Below, one piece after another: positions 5,248 to 26,175 of a stretch of 35,129 nt of DNA (its first letter is position 1; every line of letters starts with the position of its first letter). Origin of the DNA: Pseudomonadota bacterium (GTDB taxonomy: Bacteria > Desulfobacterota > Desulfobacteria > Desulfobacterales > ETH-SRB1); contig JAHIKR010000064.1 of assembly GCA_018897415.1 (NCBI GenBank), forward strand, positions 1 to 35,129, read 5' to 3'. Position numbers and translations under genes: made by a program. The notes under the pieces were generated by a model. It did no database searches and was not told where the DNA came from. It saw only the letters and a list, made by a program, of their open reading frames with translations.

Positions 5248-6288
5248 ATGTTAAACGATAAAACAATTTTGATTACCGGGGGAACTGGGTCATTGGGGAA
5301 AAAAATGACCCACATTATTTTGGAGAATTATACACCTGAAAAGCTTATTATCTTCAGCAGGGATGAGCTTAAGCAGTTTGAGATGTCTCAAAGATGGAGT
5401 ATGAAAAAGTATCCATGTATCCGCTATTTTCTGGGTGATGTAAGGGATAAGGATAGGCTCATTAGAGCTTTTAATGGTGTTGATTATGTCATTCATGCTG
5501 CAGCGCTTAAACAGGTTCCTGCGGCTGAGTATAATCCTGCAGAATGTATTAAAACAAACATATATGGTGCAATGAATGTTATTGATGCTGCACTTTTTAA
5601 CAATGTAAAGAAAGTCGTGGCCTTATCCACTGATAAAGCCTGCAATCCTATTAACTTATATGGAGCAACAAAGTTATGTTCAGATAAATTGTTTGTTGCA
5701 GCCAATGTCTATAGAGGATTTGATAAGGAGACAAGTTTTGCTGTCGTACGTTATGGTAATGTGCTTGGTAGTCGTGGCTCAGTGGTTCCATTTTTTAAGG
5801 AACGTTCTAAGACAGGCGTGCTTCCTATTACTGACCCCGACATGACACGCTTTTGGATTACCCTTGACCAGGCAGCTCATTTTGTACTCAAGGTTTTAGA
5901 ATTAGCAAAAGGGGGAGAAATCTTCGTTCCCAAGATTCCTTCCATGAAAATTACAGATCTGGCCAAAGCAATAGCTCCCGAGTGTTCACATAAAACCGTA
6001 GGTATTCGTCCTGGCGAGAAAATTCATGAAACCCTTATCGGAGAAGATGAAGGACGTAATGCTATAGAATATAAAGATTGTTACGTAGTAAGACAAGACC
6101 ACTTTGATGCTGAGAAAAGGCTCGATATCAATAATGGCGGCCGATCATGTCCAAAAGGATTTAGATATAGATCAGATAATAATCCTGAAAGATTAAGTAT
6201 TGAAGAATTAAAACAGACCTTAGAGCAAATCTCTGATGACTATAGTATTGAAAAAACACGTTGGTCAATGGACGATATTCCGCAATAA
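5248..6288 (+). CDS. pseB: UDP-N-acetylglucosamine 4,6-dehydratase, PseB/FlaA1 type (short soluble CapD-like SDR)
   Basis: 346 aa with N-terminal KTILITGGTGSLGKK. The catalytic block LSTDKACNPINLYGATKLCSDKLF has a Tyr-containing YGATK rather than the CapE/FnlA Met variant. Also has RYGNVLGSRGSVVP. Confidence 0.8.
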   Translation: MLNDKTILITGGTGSLGKKMTHIILENYTPEKLIIFSRDELKQFEMSQRWSMKKYPCIRYFLGDVRDKDRLIRAFNGVDYVIHAAALKQVPAAEYNPAECIKTNIYGAMNVIDAALFNNVKKVVALSTDKACNPINLYGATKLCSDKLFVAANVYRGFDKETSFAVVRYGNVLGSRGSVVPFFKERSKTGVLPITDPDMTRFWITLDQAAHFVLKVLELAKGGEIFVPKIPSMKITDLAKAIAPECSHKTVGIRPGEKIHETLIGEDEGRNAIEYKDCYVVRQDHFDAEKRLDINNGGRSCPKGFRYRSDNNPERLSIEELKQTLEQISDDYSIEKTRWSMDDIPQ

Positions 6289-6377
6289 GGAAGTAGTTCT
6301 TAGATTATTGTACCATGATACAAAAATAAATATTCAATGAAAAGTAATAAAATAAAGCGGTTGCTCAGAGGTAACTA

Positions 6378-7694
6378 ATGAAAATAGCAAAAAGTTTGAA
6401 GATGCAGAAGCGGGCAAGAAACAGGATACCCGGCATGACCCAATTGCTGTCAAAGCGTCCCGACATGTTTTCTTCAGGAGCTTGGCCAGGATATTATAGC
6501 AGAGCAAAAGGAGTAGAGATATGGGATTTGGATGGTAATCGGTATATAGATATGAGCCTTTCGGGCATCGGTACATGTATTCTTGGCTATGCCGATCCGG
6601 ACGTAAATCGAGCTGTCAAAGCTGCAATTGACGCAGGTTCAATGTCCACTTTGAATTGTCCCGAAGAAGTAGAGCTAGCAGATCTTCTTTGTAAGTTACA
6701 TCCCTGGGCCGAAATGGCCCGCTTCGCCCGTACGGGAGGCGAGGCAATGGCAATTGCCGTAAGGATAGCTCGTGCATATACTGGTAAGGACAAAATTGCC
6801 TTTTGCGGCTACCACGGGTGGCATGACTGGTATTTGGCTGCTAATTTAGGTACTGAAAATGCTTTAGGGGAACACCTCCTGACAGGGTTGAATCCAACTG
6901 GAGTCCCCAAAGGTTTAACGGGCACAGCTATTCCATTTCGCTACAATCATCTTGAAGAACTGCAAGCTATAGTTGAGAAAAACAGAAAAGACATAGCTGC
7001 TATCATTATGGAACCCATTCGCAATGTCCAACCACAACCCGGTTTTCTGGAAGGGGTAAGAGCTTTAGCTGACGAGATAGGAGCAGTCTTTATCATTGAT
7101 GAAATATCTGCTGCATTCAGAATGAACTCAGGGGGGGCACATCTTGTTTTTGGTATTTTACCCGATGTTGCGGTATTTTCCAAAGCATTGGGGAATGGCT
7201 ATCCAATAGCAGCTATAATAGGGAAGAGCCAGGTCATGGAAGCTGCTCAAAGCACATTTATTAGTAGCACTATGTGGACGGAACGTATAGGCCCTGCCGC
7301 AGCCTTGGCTACCATCAAGAAACATAAAGCTGTTGATGCAGGCAAGCACCTTATGGCTGTCGGAAAACAGATACAAGAAGGATGGACTCGTCTGGCGAAA
7401 AAGAATAACTTGAAAATAGATATTGGCGGGATCCCGCCACTCAGCCATTTTTCTTTTGAATATGATAATGCGCTATCAATGAAGGCTTTATTTGTTCAAT
7501 TGATGCTTGAACTGGGTTTTTTGGCATCGAATCTTTTTTATGCAATGTATGCCCACACAGAAGACCATGTAAGAAGCTATCTTGAAGGAGTTGATAAATC
7601 ATTTGAAAAAATAGCGCGCTCAATTGAGCACAACGATATCGATAAAAAACTCATTGGAGAACCTTCCAGTATCGGCTTTAAAAGACTTGCATAA
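6378..7694 (+). CDS. Class-III PLP aminotransferase (glutamate-1-semialdehyde 2,1-aminomutase-like)
   Basis: 438 aa with motifs ARFARTGGEAMAIAVRIARAYTG, IIDEISAAFR and FSKALGNGYP (candidate PLP lysine). These are typical of the HemL-like class-III family. Confidence 0.8.
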   Translation: MKIAKSLKMQKRARNRIPGMTQLLSKRPDMFSSGAWPGYYSRAKGVEIWDLDGNRYIDMSLSGIGTCILGYADPDVNRAVKAAIDAGSMSTLNCPEEVELADLLCKLHPWAEMARFARTGGEAMAIAVRIARAYTGKDKIAFCGYHGWHDWYLAANLGTENALGEHLLTGLNPTGVPKGLTGTAIPFRYNHLEELQAIVEKNRKDIAAIIMEPIRNVQPQPGFLEGVRALADEIGAVFIIDEISAAFRMNSGGAHLVFGILPDVAVFSKALGNGYPIAAIIGKSQVMEAAQSTFISSTMWTERIGPAAALATIKKHKAVDAGKHLMAVGKQIQEGWTRLAKKNNLKIDIGGIPPLSHFSFEYDNALSMKALFVQLMLELGFLASNLFYAMYAHTEDHVRSYLEGVDKSFEKIARSIEHNDIDKKLIGEPSSIGFKRLA

Positions 7695-7825
7695 CATGTT
7701 ATCATAAAAACTGATAAAAAAATCAAACCGATGCCAGAGAAAACTTTTATAATCAAAATTATTGAAAATGTTTTATCTGACGAGGAGTGGGTAACCCTTG
7801 TTGATGCCCTTAAGGCGATTTTGCA

Positions 7826-8146
7826 ATGGACAAAAAAAGCAAAGATTTGATGGATTTTATTTCCGGGGCTATTGATCACTTAGATGTGAGCGGCTTTGAA
7901 GCGCTTGAAATTCTGGATGTTCGTAGTCGTCTTGCATCAAGGGAGCCTCTTCTTGATGAGCAGGACAGGGCGCGTCTGGAAAGATTGGACCGCCAGTTGC
8001 TGCAAATGGCAGATTCTCTAATAGAATGTATCTCAGAAGTTGCGAATCTGGCAGAAATGCGGAGAAGAGCACATATTCTTCCATCTCATTGGTGGTGGTA
8101 TCTGGATGGAATTACTTCTGACAACCGCAAGGTCGCCGAAGGATAG
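7826..8146 (+). CDS. Hypothetical protein (contains the SHWWWYLD motif)
   Basis: 106-aa ORF with protein-like composition. No family was recognised. An upstream overlapping 39-codon ORF (7731-7850) would fuse to it with +1 A in the A7 tract at 7832-7838. Confidence 0.4.
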   Translation: MDKKSKDLMDFISGAIDHLDVSGFEALEILDVRSRLASREPLLDEQDRARLERLDRQLLQMADSLIECISEVANLAEMRRRAHILPSHWWWYLDGITSDNRKVAEG

Positions 8147-8173
8147 CAGCTATGCTCCAAGCTCTTGCCTCTT

Positions 8174-8203
8174 CACTTAAAACTTAATCACTTAAAACTA
8201 AAA
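8174..8203 (+). repeat. Two units of the 15-bp motif CACTTAAAACTTAAT
   Basis: cacttaaaacttaat cacttaaaactaaaa. The same unit is tandemly repeated at 9000-9059, and the surrounding sequence (8161-8218) is also homologous to 8986-9075. Confidence 0.8.
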
Positions 8204-8296
8204 ACTATGCTTTCTTCCGGTAGGCTGAGGGTCAAAAAATGGAAATTAGTCTGAAAGCGTGTTGCAAGTCATATTTGCAAATGATAAACGGGATTT

Positions 8297-8608
8297 GTGA
8301 TGAAGGAAGTTAAGTTTACAGTAATGCTGACGCGAGAGGACAGATACCGCCACCACCATGTACGATTTAGAAAAGACGTTCTCAGTTTTGTCGTACAATA
8401 TGAGACAAAGGTGGAAGAAAAATGGCTTCCAGTCGTAAGATATGATACAAGGCATGGCTTTGCTCATCGGGATCTTTTGGATAAAAAGGGCGAAAAACAA
8501 AAGACGCCTATTCTTGCCGAAGACTACAGCGAGGCCCTGACATTTGCTGAATACGATATCAAATCTAATTGGAAAATGTACAAACAGCATTTCATGGTAG
8601 GAGGTTAG
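8297..8608 (+). CDS. Small hypothetical protein, first gene of a tightly coupled pair
   Basis: 103-aa ORF whose stop lies 1 nt before the next ATG. The motif VVRYDTRHGFAHRD is faintly reminiscent of the RYDN..HH motif of TumE/DUF6516-type toxins; this is unverified. Confidence 0.55.
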   Translation: MMKEVKFTVMLTREDRYRHHHVRFRKDVLSFVVQYETKVEEKWLPVVRYDTRHGFAHRDLLDKKGEKQKTPILAEDYSEALTFAEYDIKSNWKMYKQHFMVGG

Positions 8609-8609
8609 C

Positions 8610-8903
8610 ATGGAGACACGAGAAAACGAGTTCTTTACCAGGAATTCCGAATTAAGTATGGAGTTCAGCAAATATGTTTTGGAACATCCCGAGATGGACG
8701 ACCTGCTGACAGAAGAAGCGGTAGTTGTGTTCCTGCCAGAATTTGATGCAGAACTGGCGGATTTCAACTCAAGAATGGCAAAGGAAATTGAAGGTGAAGG
8801 CGGCAGGGTGCTTTATGTGAAGGTGAAACAGATGGCCCCGAAGATCTTTTCCAGGCTGATGGGGGTTGAAGTTGGAGTTGCACGGTCACAACTTGAACAT
8901 TGA
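8610..8903 (+). CDS. Small acidic hypothetical protein, second gene of the coupled pair
   Basis: 97-aa ORF starting 1 nt after the stop of the previous ORF, which implies translational coupling. No family was recognised with confidence. Confidence 0.55.
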   Translation: METRENEFFTRNSELSMEFSKYVLEHPEMDDLLTEEAVVVFLPEFDAELADFNSRMAKEIEGEGGRVLYVKVKQMAPKIFSRLMGVEVGVARSQLEH

Positions 8904-8999
8904 GTACTGGTTCCATGATCTTTCACGGCTTACCGCAGATTTCTGTGCGGAAGCATCTTTTTGCTTCCAAGGCTGGATGTCTTTGGCTCTCTTCCTCTT

Positions 9000-9059
9000 G
9001 CCTTAAAACTTAATCACTTAAAACTTAATCACTTAAAACTTAATCACTTAAAACTTAAC
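9000..9059 (+). repeat. Tandem repeat, 4 x 15 bp (CACTTAAAACTTAAT), ending 3 nt before the aldo/keto reductase ATG
   Basis: gccttaaaacttaat / cacttaaaacttaat / cacttaaaacttaat / cacttaaaacttaac, read directly from the sequence. Confidence 0.9.
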
Positions 9060-9062
9060 ACT

Positions 9063-9956
9063 ATGTTCTTTCCTCATCTTGTCTTAGGCACAGCGCAACT
9101 TGGTCTTCCCTATGGCTTAGCCAACAAGGTAGGGCAACCTGACCAGGCTGTTGCAATTACTATAATCCGTGAAGCTTGGAAAAATGGGATTAGGGAATTT
9201 GATACAGCTCAGGCATATGGGGACAGCGAAAAGGTTTTGGGGAAGGCTCTTTACGAATTGGGCATATCAAGCGAAGCAAAAATCATAACTAAATTCCATC
9301 CGAATTTGGATCATCTGAACGCTTCAGATATGTCGAGAGCCTTGGATGAATCTCTCGAAAGGCTTAGGGTCCGAAGTCTTTATGGTATTATGCTGCACAG
9401 GGAGGAAATGCTTTCCTTATGGAATAAAGGTTTAGCGAAAATTCTTCATGCCTTTATTTTGTCCGGTAGAGTTGAAAAAATAGGTATCTCCGTCTATTCA
9501 CCAGATAAAGCTATACAGGCTTTAAACACCGAAGGTATCAGTATGGTTCAACTTCCGACCAATATCGTGGATAGAAGATTTGAAAATACAGGCGTATTTA
9601 AGCTATCAGATGAAAAGAAAAAACAGATTTACATCAGAAGCGTTTTTCTTCAGGGGCTGCTACTAATGAATCCGGAAGAAATTTCGGATAAAATGTCATT
9701 TGTCAGGCCAATAATTAAAGAAATACAAACGATTTCAAATAATATTGGATTGTCACAGCAGGAAATAGCGCTGGGTTACGTGAAATCAGAGATGCCAAAC
9801 GCTCATGTGGTTTTTGGCGCAGAATCTTCTGAGCAGGTAAAGAGCAATATAGCCTGTTGGAGAAAAAACATTCAACAGAATCTGGTTGATATGATTAAAC
9901 GTAAATTTGATGATATTGACGAAGTTATTTTGAATCCTAATTTATGGCCAAAATGA
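9063..9956 (+). CDS. Aldo/keto reductase
   Basis: From the ATG at 9063 the protein reads MFFPHLVLGTAQLGLPYG...REFDTAQAYGDSEKVLGKAL, a typical AKR N-terminus. The ORF-track start at 8961 (TTG) would translate the 15-bp tandem repeat and is unlikely. Confidence 0.8.
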   Translation: MFFPHLVLGTAQLGLPYGLANKVGQPDQAVAITIIREAWKNGIREFDTAQAYGDSEKVLGKALYELGISSEAKIITKFHPNLDHLNASDMSRALDESLERLRVRSLYGIMLHREEMLSLWNKGLAKILHAFILSGRVEKIGISVYSPDKAIQALNTEGISMVQLPTNIVDRRFENTGVFKLSDEKKKQIYIRSVFLQGLLLMNPEEISDKMSFVRPIIKEIQTISNNIGLSQQEIALGYVKSEMPNAHVVFGAESSEQVKSNIACWRKNIQQNLVDMIKRKFDDIDEVILNPNLWPK

Positions 9957-10735
9957 TGAATATTGTTGCAATACTTCAAGCTAGGATGGGATCATCACGC
10001 CTGCCTGGGAAAGTGCTAAAGCCGATACTCGGCCGCCCAATGTTGGAACATCATATAGAGCGGATAAAACTGAGCAGTAAAATTAACCGAATAGTTGTCG
10101 CCACCAGCATTGATCCAGCGGATCAAGCAATTGTTGATCTCTGCCGGCAGATAGGAATAGAATCTTTTGAAGGTGAACTTGAAAATGTCCTAGATCGTTT
10201 TTACCAAGCAGCAAGACTATACAAATCGGATCATGTGGTTCGCTTGACCGGTGATTGTCCATTGGCTGATCCACATTTAATAGACGAATTAATTGATTTT
10301 TACTTCGTTCAGAAATGTGATTATGCCAGCAATTGTTATGAACCAACTCTGCCTGACGGGCTTGACGCCGAAGTTTTCTCCTTTGCAGTTCTGGAACAGG
10401 TATGGAAGGAAGCCGTGTTGCCATCCCATCTGGAACATGTTACCCCTTTTATTTACATGCATCCGGAAAGGTTTAAAATAAAGAGCCATAAGTATCATAC
10501 AGATTTATCACATCTCAGGTGGACGGTTGATGAATATGAGGATCTGGAATTTGTTAGGCGGATATATGAAATACTTTATCCTGTAAAACCAGATTTTTCG
10601 ATGAAAGATATTCTTCTCCTTCTTGAAAAAAATCCAGAACTTGCGGAAATCAACAGGCGTTTTAAAAGAAATGAGGGTGCGAAGAAGTCGATTGAAAAGG
10701 ATAAGCAATTTCTTGCGCAAAAGCACAGCCATTAG
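9944..10735 (+). CDS. SpsF-type cytidylyltransferase (CTP_transf_3 family; candidate CMP-nonulosonate synthetase)
   Basis: N-terminal AILQARMGSSRLPGKVLKPILGRPML, plus RLTGDCPL and a LRWTVDEYEDLEF tail. The start may be ATG 9944, 9953 or 9956, and it overlaps the AKR stop (9954-9956). Confidence 0.75.
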   Translation: MAKMMNIVAILQARMGSSRLPGKVLKPILGRPMLEHHIERIKLSSKINRIVVATSIDPADQAIVDLCRQIGIESFEGELENVLDRFYQAARLYKSDHVVRLTGDCPLADPHLIDELIDFYFVQKCDYASNCYEPTLPDGLDAEVFSFAVLEQVWKEAVLPSHLEHVTPFIYMHPERFKIKSHKYHTDLSHLRWTVDEYEDLEFVRRIYEILYPVKPDFSMKDILLLLEKNPELAEINRRFKRNEGAKKSIEKDKQFLAQKHSH

Positions 10736-10759
10736 TATTGATCAAAATGGAGATTGAAT

Positions 10760-12871
10760 ATGGAAAGAGAAAAAATTACTATATATCTTGCAGAATTGGC
10801 TCACAATGGTTTTGGACTTAGCTTGAATACCATTCCCTTGGGTATAGGAAGTGTTGGAGCCTACAGCAAAAATAAATATGGTAATCAAATTGAAATACGT
10901 TTGTTCAGACAATTTGAAGACTTAATGAATGCTATATCAGATTTGCCGCCACATATTGTTGGCTTAGGATATTTTACATGGAATGACAATTTGACGCTTG
11001 CGGCCTTAAAATGTGTGAGGGAAATCAGTCCCGATACCCTGATTGTTCTCGGTGGCCTCAACATAACTATTAAAGGGTGGGAGAACACAACAAATAACGT
11101 TACCTCTAAAAAAAGGAAACCTTGTGATGAATACGCAAGAAAATATGATTTTACACTGCTTAATAATAATGCAGATATCGATATTATTGTACATGGAGAT
11201 GGGGAGGTTCCCTTTTCAAACATTATAGAAAAAATGATGGATTCCGCAAATCGATTACAAGTAAAAAGCCAGCCTATCGATGGGTGTACTACATTAGTTG
11301 ATGGAAATTTACTTGCAGGCAAAGTGGTTTCACCTTTGCTTGACCTGGATGTTATACCTTCTCCTTATATAATGGGCTTATATGCTGAATTGTTTGAACG
11401 ATATCAGTTAGTCCCTCAAGTTGAGTCTGTAAGGGGATGTCCTTACAATTGCACCTACTGTACGATTGGCGGAAATATTAATAAGCTGAGAAAACATAGT
11501 TTAGAATATATTAAGGAGGAGATCTTATTTCTTAAAGACAACAGCCCTAACAGAATTTTAAGAATAGCGGATTCAAATTGGGGTATTCTGAAAAGAGATG
11601 TCGAGTTGGCCGAGTTTATCAGGGAATTACATAATTCCACTGGCTACCCAAGTTCATTGAGAGTCTATTACGCAGAAAAAGGCCCTTTTGAAAATGTAAG
11701 AAGAATGGCGAAGACACTGAAGACTTTGCTGCCTTTGAATATGAGCTTCCAGACCTTAACAAAGGAAGTTTTGAAAAATGTTAAAAGACAAAACATGCCG
11801 ATTTCTAAGGTTAAGGAAATGGTTAAATTTGCTCATAGCAATAATATATCCGTTTCTACTGAACTTATTTCTGGACTACCAGGAGAAACATATCAGTCTT
11901 TCAGGGATGTATTCTTGGAAACCGTAAAGCTCAACTTTGATAGCGTTTATGTTGGCACCCTTTATTTAACAAAGGGTGCAGAATTATATACGGATAGAGC
12001 TAGGAAACAGTACGGTTTGAAGACAAAATATGTACTTCTCGGCAATAATATTACAAAACTTAATTCTCGTTATGTCATTGACGCAGATGAAGTTGTGACC
12101 GAGTCAAATAGAATATCTCTGAACGATTTTTGGGGACTTCATAAGTTCAATTTTTTTATTTTTTCATGTTATGGTGCAGCGTTCTTGAAAGAGATCATTA
12201 TGCACTGTATCAATTATCAGATAACGCCATTAGACCTATATGATGAATTATGTGAAAGGCCTGATTGTTACCCGTTTTTTAACGAAATCGCCGACAAATA
12301 CATGACAACTGTGAAAACAAAATACTTTGACACGAGAGAAGAACTTGAGGAAGCGGTATCAAAAACTATTAAGAAAAATGGTAATATTAATGAATTCAGC
12401 GTATATAGGCAGTGTTTTTATCGCCTTGGAAGGATTGCTAGTAGCCGATACAAACATTTATTTATCTCTGATTTTGTAAAATCTGCACGCTCAATTTATG
12501 ATAAAAATAGAAACAAGAATGAAGATGATAAATTTCACTCCATTCTGGATATGCTTGGTGATTTAGCAATAGATGTAATAATTTCGCCCCTGGAAGAAGT
12601 AAAAAAGGAAATTGTAAGATCATATAACTATGATTTAATAACATGGGCAAAGGACGATTATAAAAAACCTTTATCGGGATATAATTTAAAAAAAACAAGA
12701 AGGTTTTCGCTATGCGTCAGAAATATAAATGAGCATAGAGAATTATCTAATAAGACAAAAGGTTGGGGTGACTTAGAAAAATATGCATTTTATTTTACAA
12801 CTGTTGTTTCATCTAATATGAGGCGCTTAATTAAATATACTCATCGCGAAGACAGCGCCATCATTGAATAG
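10760..12871 (+). CDS. B12-binding-domain radical SAM enzyme (class B-like), large 700-aa form
   Basis: CxxxCxxC cluster RGCPYNCTYC with a preceding cobalamin-binding-like Rossmann region (IVGLGYFTW...LIVLGG). The ATG at 10760 follows GGAGA (10749-10753); the ORF track begins at TTG 10754. The gene is visibly more AT-rich than its neighbours. Confidence 0.8.
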   Translation: MEREKITIYLAELAHNGFGLSLNTIPLGIGSVGAYSKNKYGNQIEIRLFRQFEDLMNAISDLPPHIVGLGYFTWNDNLTLAALKCVREISPDTLIVLGGLNITIKGWENTTNNVTSKKRKPCDEYARKYDFTLLNNNADIDIIVHGDGEVPFSNIIEKMMDSANRLQVKSQPIDGCTTLVDGNLLAGKVVSPLLDLDVIPSPYIMGLYAELFERYQLVPQVESVRGCPYNCTYCTIGGNINKLRKHSLEYIKEEILFLKDNSPNRILRIADSNWGILKRDVELAEFIRELHNSTGYPSSLRVYYAEKGPFENVRRMAKTLKTLLPLNMSFQTLTKEVLKNVKRQNMPISKVKEMVKFAHSNNISVSTELISGLPGETYQSFRDVFLETVKLNFDSVYVGTLYLTKGAELYTDRARKQYGLKTKYVLLGNNITKLNSRYVIDADEVVTESNRISLNDFWGLHKFNFFIFSCYGAAFLKEIIMHCINYQITPLDLYDELCERPDCYPFFNEIADKYMTTVKTKYFDTREELEEAVSKTIKKNGNINEFSVYRQCFYRLGRIASSRYKHLFISDFVKSARSIYDKNRNKNEDDKFHSILDMLGDLAIDVIISPLEEVKKEIVRSYNYDLITWAKDDYKKPLSGYNLKKTRRFSLCVRNINEHRELSNKTKGWGDLEKYAFYFTTVVSSNMRRLIKYTHREDSAIIE

Positions 12872-12907
12872 CTGGATTTAGATTACATAAAATGCAAGCA
12901 AATTTAA

Positions 12908-13216
12908 TCATCCGCACATGATCAAGGAAAGAATCGACATCGAAGTGAGCTCTGCACGCTTTATATGTGCGAAAATCCGAAAAAGTTTTATCTTCAACGT
13001 CTTCATCCGGAATCGTCTAAGGTCCAGAGGCCTGATATTCGCTTAACCGTAGATTATCCGGAGGATTTAATCGTTGCACGAGAGGTTTATGAATTTCTTA
13101 AAAAACCGGGCGAATACATTAATGTTGCAGACATTATTGATTATATGGATGCCTATCCAAAATTGAAAGAATTGAACGGATGGATTGACGCCGGTATAGG
13201 AAGAATATGGAATTAG
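12908..13216 (+). pseudogene. C-terminal fragment of a second SpsF-type cytidylyltransferase
   Basis: The open frame reads ...SELCTLYMCENPKKFYLQRLHPESSKVQRPDIRLTVDYPEDLIVAREVYEFL. This parallels SHLEHVTPFIYMHPERFKIKSHKYHTDLSHLRWTVDEYEDLEFVRRIYEIL of the intact gene at 9944-10735. The N-terminal two thirds are absent. Confidence 0.65.
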
Positions 13217-13388
13217 AAGAAACAGTTATGACATGCAAGTATATTCTGAAAGACCAGGTAGAAGATGCAATCACTTAAGTATACCACATTAAGATACTCC
13301 ATCTGAACATTTCAAGAACTGATTTGTCAGTTCATAAATACACTTTCAGTGAAAAGATAAGCAATAATAATATTCAGGAAGGGTCATC

Positions 13389-15155
13389 ATGAATTTTAGC
13401 ACTTTTAACATGCATTTCAAAATTAACATGCGTTTCAAAAGATGGGTTAGAAAGTGGATACTCAGCGAGCATCTGTTTCGGAAGATTAGGCTTTATCGTT
13501 ACGACAAACTCCAGAAATTCTGGTTAGGCCACCCCCCGGTACCTGCACCTCCCTTCGAGACAAGCTATTTTAGAAAAGCAAATTTAGACCCACGTGTGGT
13601 TCGTCGTCTGGATGATTATCGATCCGCTGTAGTTGTAACAGGAAAAACCGAATTGCCTATTGAGAAGCGGAACGGAAAATCGTCAATTCAATTTGCAATA
13701 AGTCCGGCAAGAGATTGGGTTCCCGATAAGTTAGTTCGTTTTAAAATTGGTGGACACGAAACTCTTATTCGAGAAATACCGGTGGATCGGTGGTTCGATG
13801 TGCGCTTGGATCTTGAGGATGAAGACAAAACGTTGATTGTTGAACCAGATGCACCGGTTGAAATAACTATGCCGAGGCTCGTAAAAAATCCTATTCTGGA
13901 AAAGAATAGAAAGGAGATACGCCATATAGTCGTTTGCGTACTGGATGCATGGTCAACGGCCACTGTAAATGAAAAACATCCTATGACAGGGGAAAATAGC
14001 TTGACGCCTAATATAGATCGTTTTTTTTCGCAAGGCTTGTGTGCAAGAAAGGGTATATCAAGCGGGCAATGGACGTTGCCGGCTGTTGGTACTCTGTTCA
14101 CCGGGTTGCATGTTTCGCGTCATAAAATGACACATCCATGGCGCTGGCAGGAATTTGATCGTAATCGTCGAACATTGCCTGAATATTTTCAACATGCCGG
14201 TTATCATACCTTGTGTGGGTCCGTTGTGTCGCGGGTTACACCCGCATTTGGTCACAATCGGGGCTTTGATCGCTTCCTGTATCATTTTCCGGGATTTTCA
14301 TACCAGACTTATGATCCCGCTGTCTGGATACAGGAAATTATCGGTCATATGGAGGCACATTATGGAGATCGGACGTTCAGCTATTTCCAGTTTCCTGATA
14401 CCCATCCCTCGTGGGACATTGCCCCCGAAACGAGATATTTTCATTTATGCCGTCGTGGAAACACGTCGTCAAATCTTAAACAGTTGATGACATCAAAGGC
14501 TTCGAAAATTTTTGACATACCTAACCAAGCTCAACAATTATATTCTTTAAGACTCGCTGAGATCGACAGGATGCTTGGCTGCATTTTTGATTATGTAGAA
14601 AGAAAATTCGAAGAAGAAGCCCTTATCGTTGTGACAGCAGATCATGGTATGCGAATGCCGTATATGAGCGAAGCCCATCAAAACGATGAACCTTTCCTGA
14701 CAGATATTCGAGTTAATATCCCTCTATTCATGCGTGGTCTCGGCGTTCCCGTATGCTCTTATGACGGATTATGTCCGCCAAATCTTGATCTGCCTTTAAC
14801 TCTCTTAAATCTGGCAGGTCTAAAACCGGACTTAGATGATTTTGACGGTACAAACGTCCTGGATCGGATCAGTCTCCAAAAAGAATGTGTTATAAGTGAA
14901 TATGTTTACGCAGGAATCTACGAACTTGCAGTTAGAGGCTATGGCCACGCATTATTTTTAAAATTCGAGATCGACGACAAAGCATATAAGATTCTTTCAA
15001 GAGAACCGATATACATAGGACTATATTCGCTTAATACAGCTTCATACGGGAAAGATAACGATTTAATAAACGAAAAACCTGATGTTTTCGAAACTCTTCG
15101 CAAGGTTGCAATTGATCATATTAACAACATAGGTCTGATGGAGAATATCGGATGA
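13389..15155 (+). CDS. Alkaline-phosphatase-superfamily enzyme (phosphodiesterase/NPP- or sulfatase-like) with an N-terminal extension of about 170 aa
   Basis: Metal-site-like VCVLDAWS. The nucleophile region is QWTLPAVGTLFTG (T-x-P, not the C/S-x-P-x-R of FGly sulfatases). VVTADHGM is also present. RBS AGGAAGG. The stop overlaps the next gene's start (ATGA). Confidence 0.7.
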   Translation: MNFSTFNMHFKINMRFKRWVRKWILSEHLFRKIRLYRYDKLQKFWLGHPPVPAPPFETSYFRKANLDPRVVRRLDDYRSAVVVTGKTELPIEKRNGKSSIQFAISPARDWVPDKLVRFKIGGHETLIREIPVDRWFDVRLDLEDEDKTLIVEPDAPVEITMPRLVKNPILEKNRKEIRHIVVCVLDAWSTATVNEKHPMTGENSLTPNIDRFFSQGLCARKGISSGQWTLPAVGTLFTGLHVSRHKMTHPWRWQEFDRNRRTLPEYFQHAGYHTLCGSVVSRVTPAFGHNRGFDRFLYHFPGFSYQTYDPAVWIQEIIGHMEAHYGDRTFSYFQFPDTHPSWDIAPETRYFHLCRRGNTSSNLKQLMTSKASKIFDIPNQAQQLYSLRLAEIDRMLGCIFDYVERKFEEEALIVVTADHGMRMPYMSEAHQNDEPFLTDIRVNIPLFMRGLGVPVCSYDGLCPPNLDLPLTLLNLAGLKPDLDDFDGTNVLDRISLQKECVISEYVYAGIYELAVRGYGHALFLKFEIDDKAYKILSREPIYIGLYSLNTASYGKDNDLINEKPDVFETLRKVAIDHINNIGLMENIG

Positions 15156-15739
15156 CGAAAAATATAGTTCTTCGACCCCTTGCGCAAGAGGATGTCAGCC
15201 AAGCTTATGTAGATTGGCTCAATGATCCTGAAATTTATCATTACCTTGGCATAAGACATAGAAACCGTAATTTTACAAAAGAGGATATCCAGTCATTTCT
15301 CAATGACTGTCTTGCGAATTGTCGATTTCACTGGGGCATATTTTTGAATAATCGGCATGTTGGTAATGTTTCATGTTCTGCATGGAGTAACGAAAATCAT
15401 TGGATCGATGTATCGTATATTATAGGAGACAAAAGCATATGGGGTCGGAGTGTGGCAACCCTTTCGGTTGGCGCTGTTATTGACTATCTTTTTTCGGTCC
15501 ACCACTATCATAAGGTGCAGGCACATTCGACAGTTGATAATTTGGCTTCAATAAAAGTAATGAAAAAACTTGGAATGCGTCAGGATGCCGTACTCCGTGA
15601 GAATGCTTATTTTCCAAATCGGAAACGCTATTCTGATGAAGTAATATATAGTGTTCTTTGCAGAGAATGGGACCCGAAAGTAATTGATATAGATAATGTT
15701 CGGGTTTTTCCGATGCCGTGGGAGAAAGATATTACATGA
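15152..15739 (+). CDS. GNAT-family N-acetyltransferase (RimJ/RimL-like)
   Basis: IVLRPLAQEDVSQAYVDWLNDPEIYHYL N-terminus and a GNAT core (WGRSVATLSVGAVIDYLF...VMKKLGM). ATGA overlaps on both sides. Confidence 0.75.
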   Translation: MTKNIVLRPLAQEDVSQAYVDWLNDPEIYHYLGIRHRNRNFTKEDIQSFLNDCLANCRFHWGIFLNNRHVGNVSCSAWSNENHWIDVSYIIGDKSIWGRSVATLSVGAVIDYLFSVHHYHKVQAHSTVDNLASIKVMKKLGMRQDAVLRENAYFPNRKRYSDEVIYSVLCREWDPKVIDIDNVRVFPMPWEKDIT

Positions 15740-16671
15740 AAGTCGTTATTGCTGGAGTGAGTGGTCTCCTTGGAAGTAATCTGGTCATGACCATGAGGGG
15801 CAAATTCGATACTGTCGGGACATATAATCAAAATAAAATAGGTTTTGATGGTATTTGTATGGAGAACATGGACATTACTTCGGGTGAAGAAGTTAACAGT
15901 ACTATCTTGAGCGCTATGCCAGATATTTTAATCCATTGTGCTGCTGAAACTCGAGTTGATCATTGCGAGGAGTATCCTGGAGACGCCTTCCGTGTTAATG
16001 TTGAAGGTACATCAAACTTAGCTCTTGCAAGTGCCAAGGCAGGTGCAAAAATGATTTATATTTCCACGGATTCTGTATTTGATGGTCTAAAGGGGAACTA
16101 CAGCGAAAAAGACGAGACAAATCCCGTAAATGTTTACGCTCAGACAAAACTTGAGGGAGAAAAAGCCGTAAAAAAATACTGCGATAATTATCTGATCCTC
16201 CGAACCAATATTTACGGTTGGAACGCAAGGTCAAAATCGAGTTTAGCCGAATGGGTTCTAAATCGTTTGAAAAGCGGTGATCGAAAAATTCCTGGCTTCG
16301 GGGATGTTTTTTTTTCACCCATGTTAGTTAATGATCTGGCTCATATTATTGAAAAGATGATAGGAGCTGATTTGCGGGGGCTGTTTCACGTCGGAGCAAG
16401 CGATAAGTGCAGCAAACTCGATTTTGCCAGAATGATCTGCAGGGTCTTTGATGAAAACTCAAGGCGTGTAGTCCCGAGCAATTCGGATACTATTAATTTC
16501 AGAGCTCGCCGTCCCAAAGATACTTCTCTGAATGTTACGAAGGTTACTCTCGAATTGGAAAATGCAATGCCTACTGTTGTAGAAGGATTAAGACATTTTC
16601 GAGAGCTCTTGGATAGTGGTTACGTTGATCAACTGAAGGCGATTGTGATGAATCAGGAGGTTTCATTATGA
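15736..16671 (+). CDS. RmlD-like NAD(P)-dependent sugar 4-ketoreductase (SDR)
   Basis: From the ATG at 15736 it reads MKVVIAGVSGLLGSNL. It also has YISTDSVFDG and YAQTKLEGE (YxxxK). The ORF-track start 15718 lies inside the GNAT gene. There is an ATGA overlap with the GNAT stop. Confidence 0.75.
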   Translation: MKVVIAGVSGLLGSNLVMTMRGKFDTVGTYNQNKIGFDGICMENMDITSGEEVNSTILSAMPDILIHCAAETRVDHCEEYPGDAFRVNVEGTSNLALASAKAGAKMIYISTDSVFDGLKGNYSEKDETNPVNVYAQTKLEGEKAVKKYCDNYLILRTNIYGWNARSKSSLAEWVLNRLKSGDRKIPGFGDVFFSPMLVNDLAHIIEKMIGADLRGLFHVGASDKCSKLDFARMICRVFDENSRRVVPSNSDTINFRARRPKDTSLNVTKVTLELENAMPTVVEGLRHFRELLDSGYVDQLKAIVMNQEVSL

Positions 16672-17744
16672 ATAAAATGCATATCGCCGATCGCTCAATT
16701 GGAGATGGAGAGCCCACTTATTTCATAGCAGATATTGCGGCCAATCACGATGGGAGTCTGGATAGGGCCAAAAAATTGATCTGTCTGGCAAAGGAAGCCG
16801 GGGCAGATGCAGTAAAATTTCAAAATTTCGAAGCCAGGAAAATAGTCAGCAAACAGGGATTTGAATCGCTGGGTGGTCAAGCATCTCATCAGACTAAGTG
16901 GAAGAAGTCTGTCTTCGAAGTTTATGAGGATGCTTCCATTCCCTCCTCGTGGACTGTAAAACTCTGTGAGTTTTGTAAAGATACGGGGATTCATTATTTT
17001 TCTTCTCCCTATGACTTTGAAGCTGTGGATATGTTAGAACCATTTGTGCCGGCTTATAAGATCGGTTCGGGGGACATTACTTGGCCGGAAATGCTTCGAA
17101 AGATTTCAGCTAAAGGCAAGCCGGTTCTTTTAGCTACGGGAGCTTCGGATATAAATGAAGTGCGTGACGCGGTAAATATCATAAAATGTATCAATCCAAA
17201 TTTGGTTTTGATGCAGTGTAATACAAATTATACGGGGAGCCTGGAAAACTTCAGATACATTAATTTAAATGTTCTTAAAACCTTTAAAGACAAGTTCCCA
17301 GATGTAGTATTGGGTTTATCGGATCATACCCTTGGATATGTAACAGTATTGGGGGCTGTTGCATTGGGGGGGCGGGTAATAGAAAAACATTTCACTGACG
17401 ACATGAGTCGAGAAGGACCGGACCATGTTTTTTCAATGATACCTGAGGCATGGGCAGAAATGGTGCTACGTACACGAGAACTTGAAGATGCACTCGGGGG
17501 AAAGGAAAAGCGGGTGGAAGATAATGAACAGGAAACCGTGATCCTGCAGAGACGATGTCTGCGCGCGAAACAAAATCTGAAAATTGGAACAATTCTTACC
17601 AGACACTTGATTGATGTTTTAAGACCGGCACCGAGAGATGCTATTTCCCCTTATGATGTTGATCGGATGATCGGAATGCGGTTAATGGTTGATTTGCCGG
17701 AAGGCGAATATTTTAAATGGTCATATTTAGAAACGGTAAATTAA
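16668..17744 (+). CDS. NeuB-family nonulosonic acid synthase (PseI/LegI/NeuB/SpsE type)
   Basis: YFIADIAANHDGSLDRAKKLICLAKEAGADAVKFQ, a GLSDHT motif, and a C-terminal SAF-like domain. ATGA overlap with the upstream reductase. Confidence 0.85.
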   Translation: MNKMHIADRSIGDGEPTYFIADIAANHDGSLDRAKKLICLAKEAGADAVKFQNFEARKIVSKQGFESLGGQASHQTKWKKSVFEVYEDASIPSSWTVKLCEFCKDTGIHYFSSPYDFEAVDMLEPFVPAYKIGSGDITWPEMLRKISAKGKPVLLATGASDINEVRDAVNIIKCINPNLVLMQCNTNYTGSLENFRYINLNVLKTFKDKFPDVVLGLSDHTLGYVTVLGAVALGGRVIEKHFTDDMSREGPDHVFSMIPEAWAEMVLRTRELEDALGGKEKRVEDNEQETVILQRRCLRAKQNLKIGTILTRHLIDVLRPAPRDAISPYDVDRMIGMRLMVDLPEGEYFKWSYLETVN

Positions 17745-17747
17745 TCT

Positions 17748-18872
17748 ATGCGAGTCCTCTATTTCAGCAGAGATTATACGACCCACGATAGGCGCTTTCT
17801 TCAAAAACTGGCCCAATCTCGACACGAAATATTTTTTTTACGGTTAGAAAATGACAGTATTGATTATGAATCGCGTCTACTGCCGGATAATATTAATGTG
17901 GTAGAATGGAGTGGTGGGCGCGGACAAGTCAAAACGCAGGAGGAGTGCTTGCGTTTAATGCCTGATTTTTCAGCCGTTCTCGAACAAATTAAGCCCGATC
18001 TCATTCATGCCGGTCCTGTTCAATCCTGTGGATTCATGACTGCTATGAGCGGATTTCATCCTTTTCTTGTGATGTCCTGGGGATCCGATATATTGCTGGA
18101 TGCTGATAGAAATGAATTCTGGCGTTGGATAACAAAATATACTCTCGATCGGTCGGATTTTCTCTTTTGTGACTGCACGGCAGTTAGAAACAAGGTGAAA
18201 GAAATATCAAATTATTCAGGCAAGGCAATCCTTCAGTATTCATGGGGTGTCGATATAAAAGAATTTTCTCCAGGTCCGGATAACTCGAATTTTAAAGATT
18301 CTTTACAGTGGAGCGAGAACTGTATTGTTTTGTCGACCCGGAACTGGGAGCCAATATATGGAATGGATGTGCTCCTCAGGGCTTTTCACAAAGCCTATAC
18401 GAAAAATTCAAACCTCAGGCTTGTCTTATTGGGAAACGGTTCTCAGGAAAATGCAATTTGTAATTTTGTCAAAAAGCATGAACTCGATCATGCCGTTTTT
18501 CTGCCGGGTATATTATCCCACGCTAAACTGCCAGACATCTTCAGGGCTTCGGATGTATATTTAAGCTGTTCGTTCAGTGATGGTTCATCCGTATCACTCT
18601 TAGAGGCGATGGCTACGGGACTTCCTGTCATCGTAACAGACGGAGCTGGCAACAGGGAATGGGTTGTCCCAGGCCAAAATGGATGGTTGGCCCCGCCGGG
18701 CGATTTCGAAACATTTTCTGAATTTTTATATCAAGCTTCAATAATGTCGCACGAGGAACGAGAAAGCATAAGGCAGACGAATCGTAATATCATTGAGAGA
18801 TCAGCTGATTGGAATAAAAATGCATCCAAGCTTTTGGAATTGTATGAAAGAATCGAATCTCAATTTATCTGA
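17748..18872 (+). CDS. Glycosyltransferase, GT4-like (GT-B, Glycos_transf_1)
   Basis: C-terminal E-x7-E region SFSDGSSVSLLEAMATGLPVIVTDGAGNREWV. Starts 3 nt after the NeuB-type gene. Confidence 0.8.
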   Translation: MRVLYFSRDYTTHDRRFLQKLAQSRHEIFFLRLENDSIDYESRLLPDNINVVEWSGGRGQVKTQEECLRLMPDFSAVLEQIKPDLIHAGPVQSCGFMTAMSGFHPFLVMSWGSDILLDADRNEFWRWITKYTLDRSDFLFCDCTAVRNKVKEISNYSGKAILQYSWGVDIKEFSPGPDNSNFKDSLQWSENCIVLSTRNWEPIYGMDVLLRAFHKAYTKNSNLRLVLLGNGSQENAICNFVKKHELDHAVFLPGILSHAKLPDIFRASDVYLSCSFSDGSSVSLLEAMATGLPVIVTDGAGNREWVVPGQNGWLAPPGDFETFSEFLYQASIMSHEERESIRQTNRNIIERSADWNKNASKLLELYERIESQFI

Positions 18873-18899
18873 AAATCAGTCTGTTTCTGAAGGGGAAAA

Positions 18900-20822
18900 A
18901 TGATTATTTGCGTCAATTGCAACGGTAATATCACGACAGAGGAAAGTCCGGTCTATCAGTCCAGGAATGTTTTCGTTTTCAGTAAAGAAGACTATGAAAA
19001 ATTTATACTGGCGGATGAGTCCATTCTTTTTCTTTGGGGGGAGGTTTACGCTATATGCATGCCGAATGGTACTTATATTTCCATTGATCTCAAGACACAC
19101 GAAAGGGATATTGTAAATTTTTTTAGTAATTATTCCATCGATCAGGCAATTGATAAAATTGAGGGTAATTTTGTAGGATTGTTGATCAGGAATGGCGAAA
19201 TCGCCATCTTTGGCGATGAATTTAACAGGAAAGAACTTTTCTATAGAAAAATAAATGATGGAATTATTGCTTCCACAAACTTAAAGGCTGTCATAAAAAC
19301 AATTGATACAATCCGTTATTCCCAGAATGTTCTTGTAAATTTGCTTACCATATATGGGTATTATGCACCTAAAAAGCACACGATTTATAGAGATGTTTAT
19401 CGTCTTGGTGTTGGGGAACGATTACATTTTTCGTTAGGGAGCTTGACCGTAGAGAAAAAACCATTTGAGCCACTTAAGACAGGATCTTTTGGAATTAAAG
19501 AACACAATGAATATGTTGAGATTATGAGGAGCGCTGTTGAAATTCGCGCTTCATCACATTGTAACTGGATATTTATGTCCAGTGGATTTGATTCAAGTTC
19601 TATACTTGCTCTTCTCGTAGAAAAGTATGGGCCAGAAAAGGTGCGGTGTGTTGTAGGACGGATGAAATACTCAGAACGCGCCGGAGTCATCAATCAATTC
19701 GAGCTGGATAGAGCACATAAAATTGCTGAGTATTTTGGAGTACGAATTGATCAGGTGGATTTCGACTTTACAGGGCAAAAATCCGTCGAGTCATGGAAGC
19801 AGACGATTCCTCTCTTAAGAGATCAGCATCTATATGCTTATTCGGCTTATAATTTTTATCATTTGGCAAAATATGTCGCTGACAATGGAAATAGCGATGA
19901 TGCGGTCTTTGTCGGTGCTGTCAGCGATGGGGTTCATAATTTAGGTTTTGCCCAGTTTGCCACGATTCTCGAACATCCTGACATCGGATTTCGAGAATAC
20001 AGCGATAAAATGGCCTCTTATCTTTTCGGGCCAAGCTTTTTTAAGCGAATACTCGAAGGTGATATAGAAAATGATTTTGTGTATCAAATCATGAAGAGTC
20101 GTTCGGACGGAGCTGAGTTTTATAATATTAAGAAGATGGATGAATATGAGAAAAAAATAAAATTTCTTGAGTCTTTCTTCCACCGCAATCGTAGGATACC
20201 ATTCCTCAAACTTAAGAACATTTCTCTGGTTACTCAAGGTGGTGCAGAGTCTTTTGAAAATGAAATGGCAAACATATACTTAAAAGAAGTGGCAGAGAAA
20301 TTGATACCCGAAACAGTCTATTCATGCATACTGTATCTTTACAATAGTTATTTTTGGCAGGGAAGCACAGAGAGGTCAACGAACGCAGGGGCGTTGGATG
20401 TAATGGGCAAGACGATTACTTCTCCTTACTGGGATGGACGATTACATCGCTTCTTGAGTAAAATGCCTGAAGACTGGGGACGTGGGCTTGAACTCCGGCC
20501 AACAAAGTACCCCCTAAAGTGGATGTTGCAGAATGCGGTTGATTATCCCCTTCATCTGCAAACTGGACCTCATTCCTATCTATATGATGTGAATCCACAG
20601 TTTAGCCATACGAGCGAGTTTTTGTTTGGCTCGGCCTTAAAATTTTATTTGCAGGAAATCCTCAAAAACCGTCCTTATGAGGAAATTTTAGAGAGCAGCT
20701 ATTTTAATTTGGAATATATCAATTCAATTGTCGATGAATACGTTGCTGGTAGAGAATTCAGCGGTGCCAAAATGAATGACCTTCTCGCAATCGCAAATCT
20801 TTGCCTGATAGGCTGGTATTGA
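18900..20822 (+). CDS. Asparagine-synthetase-B-like ATP-dependent amidotransferase/amidoligase
   Basis: PP-loop variant IFMSSGFDSSSILALL with an AsnB-like layout over 640 aa. The N-terminus (MIICVNC) lacks the usual Met-Cys nucleophile arrangement. Confidence 0.65.
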   Translation: MIICVNCNGNITTEESPVYQSRNVFVFSKEDYEKFILADESILFLWGEVYAICMPNGTYISIDLKTHERDIVNFFSNYSIDQAIDKIEGNFVGLLIRNGEIAIFGDEFNRKELFYRKINDGIIASTNLKAVIKTIDTIRYSQNVLVNLLTIYGYYAPKKHTIYRDVYRLGVGERLHFSLGSLTVEKKPFEPLKTGSFGIKEHNEYVEIMRSAVEIRASSHCNWIFMSSGFDSSSILALLVEKYGPEKVRCVVGRMKYSERAGVINQFELDRAHKIAEYFGVRIDQVDFDFTGQKSVESWKQTIPLLRDQHLYAYSAYNFYHLAKYVADNGNSDDAVFVGAVSDGVHNLGFAQFATILEHPDIGFREYSDKMASYLFGPSFFKRILEGDIENDFVYQIMKSRSDGAEFYNIKKMDEYEKKIKFLESFFHRNRRIPFLKLKNISLVTQGGAESFENEMANIYLKEVAEKLIPETVYSCILYLYNSYFWQGSTERSTNAGALDVMGKTITSPYWDGRLHRFLSKMPEDWGRGLELRPTKYPLKWMLQNAVDYPLHLQTGPHSYLYDVNPQFSHTSEFLFGSALKFYLQEILKNRPYEEILESSYFNLEYINSIVDEYVAGREFSGAKMNDLLAIANLCLIGWY

Positions 20823-20838
20823 TGATGTTTAGCCTCAG

Positions 20839-24417: not shown

Positions 24418-25437
24418 GTGGATATGAATTGTAGAATATTAGCCACGTTGGGGCCGAGTTCATTGCGGCAGGATATTATCTCGCAGATTGAGAATGAATA
24501 TTTATATCTTTTTCGCATTAATCTATCACATACACCAATCGATTCATTAGCGGATATCATAAGCAAAATTCAAAGCTACACCGAAATTCCTATCTGCTTG
24601 GATTCCGAGGGAGCACAGATTCGGAATCAATCGGTGACCAATGGAAAAATATTCCTTCATAAGGATGACGCAATAAAAATCCATTTCAATGAAATTCTGG
24701 GGGATTCAAAGAATCTATCTTTTACACCTCCTAATATAGCCGAGCAGCTAACTGTGGGTGACGAGATGAGTATTGACTTCAATTCAACTCGCATCAAGAT
24801 CATTGAGAAACACATGAAATACTGTAAGGCTAAGGTAGAACATGGGGGGAAGGTTGGTAGTAACAAGGCTGCCACCCTGAACAGGGAAATTGATATGGAA
24901 GCGATTACTTCCAAAGATAAGAAGGCAATCACGATTGCGAAAGAAATGGGGATCAAATATTTTGCTTTGTCTTTTGCCGGATCAAGTGAAGACGTCAAAA
25001 CGATGCGTGAACTCGCAGGAAGAGATGCGACCATCATTTCAAAAATTGAGAGCAAGAAAGGTGTTCTTAACCTCAATGATATAATAGATGCAAGTGACGA
25101 AATTCTTATTGACCGAGGTGATTTATCCAGAGAGATTAATCTTGAGAAGATTCCATTTCTACAAAGGAGAATAATTGCAATGGCAAGATCAAAAAAAGTG
25201 CCTGTATATGTTGCCACAAATCTCCTCGAGTCAATGGTAAAAGTGCCGGAGCCCACAAGGGCGGAAATTAATGATGTGGTAAGTACATTGTTAATGGGTG
25301 CAAATGGATTGGTTCTAGCCGCTGAAACCGCCATAGGAAAATATCCTGTAAAAGCTGCAAAGATGATTAAAAAGCTCATAAGCCAAACAGAAAAGTGGAC
25401 ATCAAATACCAGTATTACAGAATTACTAGAGAGTTGA
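24418..25437 (+). CDS. Pyruvate-kinase-like enzyme lacking the C-terminal regulatory domain
   Basis: ILATLGPSS...FRINLSHT, DSEGAQIR, KIESKKG, IDRGDLSREI and PTRAEINDVVSTLLMGANGLVLAAETAIGKYPVKA match the pyruvate kinase barrel motifs. It is only 339 aa. The likely true start is the ATG at 24424 (MNCRIL). Confidence 0.75.
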   Translation: MDMNCRILATLGPSSLRQDIISQIENEYLYLFRINLSHTPIDSLADIISKIQSYTEIPICLDSEGAQIRNQSVTNGKIFLHKDDAIKIHFNEILGDSKNLSFTPPNIAEQLTVGDEMSIDFNSTRIKIIEKHMKYCKAKVEHGGKVGSNKAATLNREIDMEAITSKDKKAITIAKEMGIKYFALSFAGSSEDVKTMRELAGRDATIISKIESKKGVLNLNDIIDASDEILIDRGDLSREINLEKIPFLQRRIIAMARSKKVPVYVATNLLESMVKVPEPTRAEINDVVSTLLMGANGLVLAAETAIGKYPVKAAKMIKKLISQTEKWTSNTSITELLES

Positions 25438-25492: not shown

Positions 25493-26056
25493 ATGTGCCG
25501 GGTGTATAACAACGGTAATAATGTTTTTTGGATAATGGGTCCCACAGCGAGCGGTAAAACGACTTTAGCCAATATCATTCTATCAAAGTTACGGGAAAAT
25601 GATACACTGGCTATTCATTATGATGGCGATGAGGTGCGAGATTTCTTTGGTCTGAGTCTTGGCTTCGAAAAAGCGGACCGGCTGAAGGTTGTCAAGACGA
25701 TTGTTCATCTTTCAAACAAGGCCATTGATGCCGGCCTAAACGTAATTATTTCCGCTTTAACTGCTAACCAGGATGCACGGGATTATGTGATACGGAATGT
25801 GAAAAATTTAATACTTATTTATCTTGAATGTAGCATCAAAAAATGTATGCAAAGGGACACTAAGGGCCTCTACGAAAAAGCGGCAAATAAAGAAATAAAC
25901 ACCGTTATCGGTTATAATGATGAATACTTGGCGCCGGAAAATCCAGATATTATCATTAATACAGATGAGAAATCGGTTGAAAGCAGTGCTCTCGATCTTA
26001 TGGAACGACTTCGCGAGCGTGGAATTATAAAAAAACCTTTCCAGAATTTAATCTAA
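25493..26056 (+). CDS. cysC: Adenylyl-sulfate (APS) kinase family protein
   Basis: P-loop GPTASGKTT, YDGDEVR and ISALTANQDARDYV resemble the CysC motifs (GxSGSGKST, LDGDNxR, SFISP). The substrate cannot be inferred from sequence. Confidence 0.65.
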   Translation: MCRVYNNGNNVFWIMGPTASGKTTLANIILSKLRENDTLAIHYDGDEVRDFFGLSLGFEKADRLKVVKTIVHLSNKAIDAGLNVIISALTANQDARDYVIRNVKNLILIYLECSIKKCMQRDTKGLYEKAANKEINTVIGYNDEYLAPENPDIIINTDEKSVESSALDLMERLRERGIIKKPFQNLI

Positions 26057-26101: not shown

Positions 26102-26175
26102 CCTAAAGATACGCTCCTCGCTATTGGGAAATTCTCAATCTTGAGTTAATGAGATCGCTGATGAGTTCTATTGTG
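26102..26175 (+). repeat. Direct repeat copy 2 (pseudo wzx 3' end plus the true start of ORF 26149)
   Basis: Reads ...LKIRSSLLGNSQS* followed by ATGAGATCGCTGATGAGTTCT. It mirrors LKTRSLLGNSQS* plus atgggattgctgatgagttct at 24285-24355. Confidence 0.85.

Follow-up and report, generated by a model that had tools for sequence, protein, structure and literature searches.

A threonine-nucleophile protein of the sulfatase fold as a candidate PAPS-dependent sulfotransferase in a bacterial surface-glycan cluster

We take Agl7 (HVO_2046) of Haloferax volcanii to be a protein of the alkaline-phosphatase/sulfatase fold. In the part of the work covered here, its deletion gave an unsulfated glycan (PMC3892788), and in Halobacterium salinarum Agl30 (VNG1056C) and Agl31 (VNG1057C), the latter soluble, were found to be both necessary and sufficient for sulfation of the glycan in vivo (PMC11980604). 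The passages covered of the second paper name neither a donor nor a nucleophile (3′-phosphoadenosine-5′-phosphosulfate, PAPS, and threonine have 0 occurrences each). Here we analyse the gene for a protein of 588 amino acids (aa) (13389..15155, forward strand), which is embedded in a large surface-glycan cluster on a 35,129-nucleotide stretch of DNA from a Desulfobacterales bacterium, below called the window. The reading we favour, with some reserve, is that its product is a PAPS-dependent glycan sulfotransferase working like Agl30/Agl31.

The 588-aa protein is like Agl30/Agl31 in its sulfatase fold, its place in a glycosylation cluster and its best structural neighbours, 5G2U and 6HHM (PMC11980604, passages covered), a likeness of fold and cluster context and not of compared sequences. 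Agl30/31 act on archaeal N-glycans, whereas the present protein is bacterial and has an N-terminal β-sandwich and a link to an adenosine-5′-phosphosulfate (APS) kinase. In Cobetia marina KMM 1449 and Vibrio sp. KMM 8419, extra PAPS-synthesis genes within the polysaccharide cluster are the sign of a sulfated glycan (PMC11766843, PMC11641403, parts covered); those clusters contain CysDNC and annotated sulfotransferases, whereas here we find a module of ATP sulfurylase (Sat)/pyruvate-kinase type and no canonical sulfotransferase. The passages covered of a review on polysaccharide sulfotransferases (PMC11625862) hold no sulfatase-fold class, and the literature searched, of limited coverage, yielded no bacterial sulfatase-fold sulfotransferase. 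Within that coverage, glycan sulfation by a sulfatase-fold enzyme has so far been shown only in archaea.

Fold and active site of the 588-aa protein

By structural comparison the protein has a sulfatase fold and is nearer to sulfatases than to nucleotide pyrophosphatases/phosphodiesterases (NPPs). In phmmer alignments to solved sulfatase-fold enzymes, Thr229 of the motif QWTLPAVGTLFTG (14067..14105, forward strand, starting at residue 227) aligns with the Ser/Cys nucleophile, and Val233 sits at the position of the signature Arg. A first-pass annotation, made from the letters of the DNA, had assigned a threonine to the nucleophile position and recognised a DHGM motif; both are confirmed, the latter as VVTADHGM from residue 414. 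Thr229 is predicted to form a single-metal site with Asp186, Asp418 and His419. Of the 84 proteins matched in a family search, the first 65 are set apart by an abrupt step in E value (from 2.6e-62 to 7.5e-16), and the query was aligned with 64 of the top 65, the self match being omitted (n = 65). W228 is present in 64/65 members, T229 in 63/65 (one Ser, one gap) and P231 in all 65, and since these residues are near-invariant the nucleophile motif is not due to chance. D186, D337, H339, D418, H419, H245, R282, R291, H299 and R441 are also invariant or nearly so. Among 141 further proteins of a wider group, taken from a representative search, the nucleophile position is Thr in 127 and Ser in 10, while R282 is kept in 108 and R441 in 98. 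The family is rare in the sampled genomes, and its members among the search matches bear the annotation arylsulfatase. One locus contains a family gene broken over three frames (L014, 6285-7335) and another, besides its family gene, a short piece that the family profile also matches (L011, 16637-17173).

A true formylglycine sulfatase had been judged unlikely at the outset, and the family alignment bears this out. The S1 sulfatase signature requires Cys or Ser in C/S-x-P-x-R, and Thr is incapable of yielding formylglycine (PMC5066984), whereas here the nucleophile is Thr and an Arg at +4 is found in 0/65 members. The protein does share the sulfatase fold with a metal site with the S1 enzymes (PF00884; SulfAtlas S1). 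It differs from them further in the PROSITE pattern PS00149 (G-Y-x-T-x3-G-K-x-H), of which G271-Y-H-T is kept and positions 278-281 are without Lys or His in 65/65, and in having no conserved equivalent of Lys375; the basic residues (Arg, Lys, His) that the two PROSITE sulfatase signatures call for are lacking across the alignment.

NPPs have the nucleophile motif T-x-P-N-H and a second metal site made of Asp, His and His. With these enzymes (PF01663) the protein has in common the Thr nucleophile, T-x-P and DHG, and it matches the Pfam Phosphodiest profile weakly, slightly above the cut-off (30.3 against 23 bits). The initial assignment to the NPP type nevertheless had to be given up: the likeness to T-F-P-N-H is superficial, N-H at +3/+4 occurring in 0/65, and the fold is nearer to sulfatases. 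As to the second metal site, D337 and H339 are present in 64/65 members, and the stretch 419-441 shows no conserved His. Neither the canonical PAPS sulfotransferase families (PF00685/PF13469) nor, in NCBIfam, the PseG family (TIGR03590) matches the protein, whose fold is that of sulfatases and not GT-B.

The N-terminal region had been described as having no transmembrane (TM) helix and no known motif. The former stands, since the 19-residue hydropathy peaks at 1.03; the latter does not, as about residues 69-166 (13593..13886, forward strand) have a recognisable jelly-roll β-sandwich fold with the shape of a carbohydrate-binding module, from which sugar binding might be supposed. A signal-like or hydrophobic N-terminal stretch was found in 0/65 members, and one member reaches 1.61 in a 19-residue window outside the N-terminus. 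The family thereby differs from YejM/PbgA, LtaS and EptA/MCR-1, which are membrane-anchored with extracytoplasmic catalytic domains and, unlike it, have a conserved His after DHG; a Thr nucleophile with a metal site is common to the protein and to enzymes of this type.

Sulfate-activation genes near family members

Downstream on the same strand, the window encodes a pyruvate-kinase barrel without the C-terminal domain (24418..25437; PF00224, E 3.6e-64), which in homologous loci belongs to the PAPS-supply module, and a divergent APS kinase (25493..26056; PF01583, E 3.5e-32), the predicted source of PAPS. The first-pass annotation had envisaged a transferase-type enzyme of the alkaline-phosphatase superfamily in a glycan pathway, which probably holds; these two genes, 9-10 kb downstream, which it had overlooked, point to sulfate instead of phosphate as the group handled, with phospho-transfer still a serious rival.

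Twelve close loci were recovered (2/6 in one search and 10/79 in another), making 13 with the window, seven of them large (at least 13 kb, window included) and six shorter. In the large loci we find APS kinase in 6/7, pyruvate kinase in 4/7, ATP sulfurylase in 3/7 and CysQ over cut-off in 1/7; among the shorter ones, L017 has APS kinase, pyruvate kinase and TauE, and L016 has pyruvate kinase. The module often directly adjoins the family gene. Within 10 kb the count for APS kinase is 5/7 large loci, because the kinase of the window lies 10.3 kb off. ATP sulfurylases over cut-off adjoin the kinase in L003, L008 and L011, with CysQ in L003, and in L008 the pyruvate kinase is fused to ATP sulfurylase. 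The closest plasmid matches of the window kinase (51-52%) directly follow a fusion of pyruvate kinase and ATP sulfurylase, which supports APS as its substrate. The barrel probably regenerates ATP for PAPS synthesis. An arrangement of divergent APS kinase and pyruvate-kinase barrel, with ATP sulfurylase joined to the barrel or next to it, was noted at L008 4805-6979, L144 14953-17163 and window 24418-25437. The L144 module, in Ensifer adhaerens (11711-21250), shares with L003 an accompanying gene that resembles cation/proton antiporters and is flanked by an O-antigen-ligase-like gene and by PqqD/HPr-kinase-like and nucleotidyltransferase genes.

No canonical sulfotransferase was found in the family loci, and PF00685/PF13469 had no match in this genome (81% complete), which has three ATP sulfurylase genes and a single PF00884 gene, that at 13389-15155. 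Two ATP sulfurylase-APS kinase fusion genes (G000, contigs C246 and C128; L088 and L089) occur in addition to a stand-alone Sat, and each fusion adjoins an epimerase/reductase-like gene.

As a control, 73 more distant loci were inspected, and APS kinase or ATP sulfurylase was found in none; only L020, whose borderline family member keeps R282, has pyruvate kinase and NeuB. A canonical APS kinase was present in one of 36 control genome regions (35 chosen from 77 non-self matches and one from another search; 33 of at least 10 kb). The seeds of the APS kinase profile came from family loci, and the profile does detect housekeeping kinases; the family kinases were confirmed independently by Pfam, that of L011 by NCBIfam. 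In a reverse control, five genomes and one plasmid with a related NeuB had neither the family gene nor the module in the 3.5 to 72 kb read, G017 and the plasmid being the only ones with close NeuB relatives.

Several points weigh against a role in sulfate addition. NeuB, class III aminotransferase and cytidylyltransferase co-occur with the family tighter still (7/7 large loci). L015 is without APS kinase within about 10 kb on either side, four short loci show no sulfate-activation gene, and a 10-kb flank would miss the window kinase, which limits the controls also. The kinases are divergent, the apsK cut-off being passed only by L008 and that of PRK05541, a family that presumably includes the non-APS kinase Cj1415, by L003, L011 and L013. 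A module of pyruvate kinase, ATP sulfurylase and APS kinase is present in the Ensifer replicon without the family gene and with no recognised sulfotransferase within 15 kb (10 proteins scanned); the module is therefore not exclusive to the family, and little can be concluded from the lack of a canonical sulfotransferase close by. The nearest Thr-bearing solved structure is YejM, a phosphatase (PMC7576196). The 13 loci are few, related and not phylogenetically independent, and the genome is incomplete. Moreover, in sulfatase mutants with Cys changed to Ser, the sulfuryl-Ser intermediate is not turned over further.

Proposed reaction and alternatives

Since relatives adjoin genes for activated sulfate, we consider the addition of sulfate to a surface sugar most likely. 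From the fold, the conserved residues, the lack of a signal or TM segment and the co-occurrence, all observed, we infer a donor, an acceptor, a direction and a covalent chemistry. The enzyme would be soluble, cytoplasmic and metal-dependent, and would use PAPS made from APS by the kinase of the cluster; the APS would come from ATP sulfurylases elsewhere in the genome (in relatives, in the same cluster), with the pyruvate-kinase barrel probably regenerating ATP. Family-specific invariant basic residues (R282, R441, H299 and others) may bind PAPS, and the sulfuryl group would pass to a sugar of the surface glycan containing nonulosonate (NulO), either on a nucleotide-sugar precursor or on the lipid-linked repeat unit before flipping. 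Transfer may be direct, or may have sulfo-Thr229 (or sulfo-His) as intermediate; as sulfo-Ser goes no further in sulfatase mutants, a direct route or carriage by a His may apply. The full proposal, a bacterial family of PAPS-dependent sulfatase-fold sulfotransferases that sulfates a NulO-type sugar or its activated precursor via sulfo-threonine and is served by a pyruvate-kinase-coupled PAPS module, is put forward tentatively.

A phospho-group transferase or phosphoesterase like LtaS, EptA or YejM is a less probable explanation. Here a Thr229 phospho-intermediate would move or remove a phospho-substituent of the glycan, the donor being a nucleotide, for example a 3′-phospho-CDP adduct that the cytidylyltransferase would make together with a Cj1415-like kinase. 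YejM as nearest Thr-bearing structure fits this, but bona fide ATP sulfurylases by the kinase, CysQ in L003, TauE in L017 and the plasmid matches behind a pyruvate kinase-ATP sulfurylase fusion do not. A phosphoenolpyruvate (PEP) utiliser and a C26 peptidase belong to the gene set of the phosphoramidate pathway, and neither was found among the scanned locus proteins. To a formylglycine-independent hydrolase we give a lower probability again. It would trim glycan sulfate, or cleave APS/PAPS at phosphorus so as to correct or restrict sulfation by another enzyme such as the asparagine-synthase-like PP-loop protein of about 640 aa (18900..20822, forward strand; PF00733, E 6.1e-7) or the product of another open reading frame (ORF). 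The sulfatase fold and the link to sulfate activation suit this explanation too, and an unrecognised sulfotransferase could exist in the loci, because several locus proteins have no Pfam family; the Ensifer module is likewise without a recognised one. It is opposed by the missing residues of both PROSITE signatures, by a Thr from which formylglycine is not obtainable (PMC5066984), and by the asparagine-synthase-like gene itself, which is found in 4/7 large loci, with close relatives in the Kiloniella locus L002, in L003 and in L015, but is absent from L008, L011 and L013, all with APS kinase.

It had also been proposed that the protein, as a nucleotide-sugar pyrophosphatase, replaces PseG in NulO synthesis, which we now regard as very improbable. 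The NulO core of the window (5248-17744) comprises PseB, an aldo-keto reductase (AKR), SpsF, a class III aminotransferase and RmlD-like and NeuB-like proteins, without PseC or PseG; PseG over cut-off is found neither in this genome nor in G401 or G402, and the tight co-occurrence and coupling with NeuB and the weak Phosphodiest match would agree with such a replacement. It is undercut by G017 (99% complete, one contig; L134), where the same six-gene core, PseB-AKR-SpsF-class III aminotransferase-RmlD-NeuB, occurs without a PseG match or a family member, and without APS kinase nearby. The NPP motif is absent and the second-metal His appears to be so as well, the APS kinase link would be left unexplained, and pyrophosphate cleavage yields a sugar 1-phosphate, whereas the synthase needs the free sugar. 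One idea for substrate supply without PseG, a speculative one, is condensation on a nucleotide-linked keto sugar.

The surrounding glycan cluster and implications

By Pfam and NCBIfam, the cluster holds the NulO core, a flippase, genes for 3-deoxy-D-manno-oct-2-ulosonic acid (Kdo) and glycosyltransferases. As described in the first-pass annotation, the 588-aa protein's gene heads a chain of four forward-strand genes joined by ATGA overlaps at 15152, 15736 and 16668. It is followed by a GNAT acetyltransferase (15152..15739; PF13302, E 4.7e-24), an RmlD-like reductase (15736..16671; PF04321, E 1.9e-59), whose start is necessarily ATG 15736, the upstream GTG 15718 of the ORF list being wrong, and a NeuB-family nonulosonate-synthase-like gene (16668..17744; PF03102, E 1.2e-72), whose product is below the NeuB and PseI cut-offs of NCBIfam. 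After a 3-nt gap a GT4 glycosyltransferase follows (17748..18872, forward strand; PF00534, E 2.3e-27). The specific tie to the GNAT-reductase-synthase order that had been read into this chain is unsupported, because the genes adjoining the family member vary among homologous loci.

The non-canonical NulO core starts with a PseB dehydratase and the class III aminotransferase (5248..7694, forward strand; TIGR03589 over cut-off, PF00202) and includes the aldo-keto reductase and the SpsF-type cytidylyltransferase (8961..10735, forward strand; PF00248, PF02348). Between aminotransferase and aldo-keto reductase the cluster is broken by small ORFs (7826-8608), which look like inserted toxin-antitoxin-type or mobile genes. 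Directly upstream of the 588-aa protein's gene lies a start-less remnant (12908-13216, forward strand) from the C-terminal portion of a second cytidylyltransferase of SpsF type; a pairwise comparison gave 27% over 73 aa (E 6e-6). Several family loci have two or three NeuB-like genes. Two large proteins (20839-22821 and 26149-28023), with relatives in most family loci, match no Pfam family and reach TIGR04417 and TIGR04326 only below cut-off; they are probably glycosyltransferases of NulO/Kdo type. The cluster also encodes two B12-dependent radical SAM proteins (10754-12871 and 30601-31995), and relatives of the former lie close to the family gene in L008 and L012.

Thr-type 'sulfatase-like' genes routinely receive an arylsulfatase annotation. 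If this family adds sulfate, many PAPS-bearing glycan clusters without a recognisable sulfotransferase would become explicable, and sulfated sialic-acid-like surface sugars would be predicted in uncultured bacteria. With its donor supply encoded alongside, a soluble enzyme would then also make the mechanism of a sulfatase-fold sulfotransferase directly testable in vitro, and new polysaccharide sulfotransferases are wanted as tools. Should the sulfo-threonine route prove true, it would have, as a way of sulfuryl transfer, no precedent for the superfamily in the literature searched, and would supply the missing donor and chemistry for archaeal Agl30/31.
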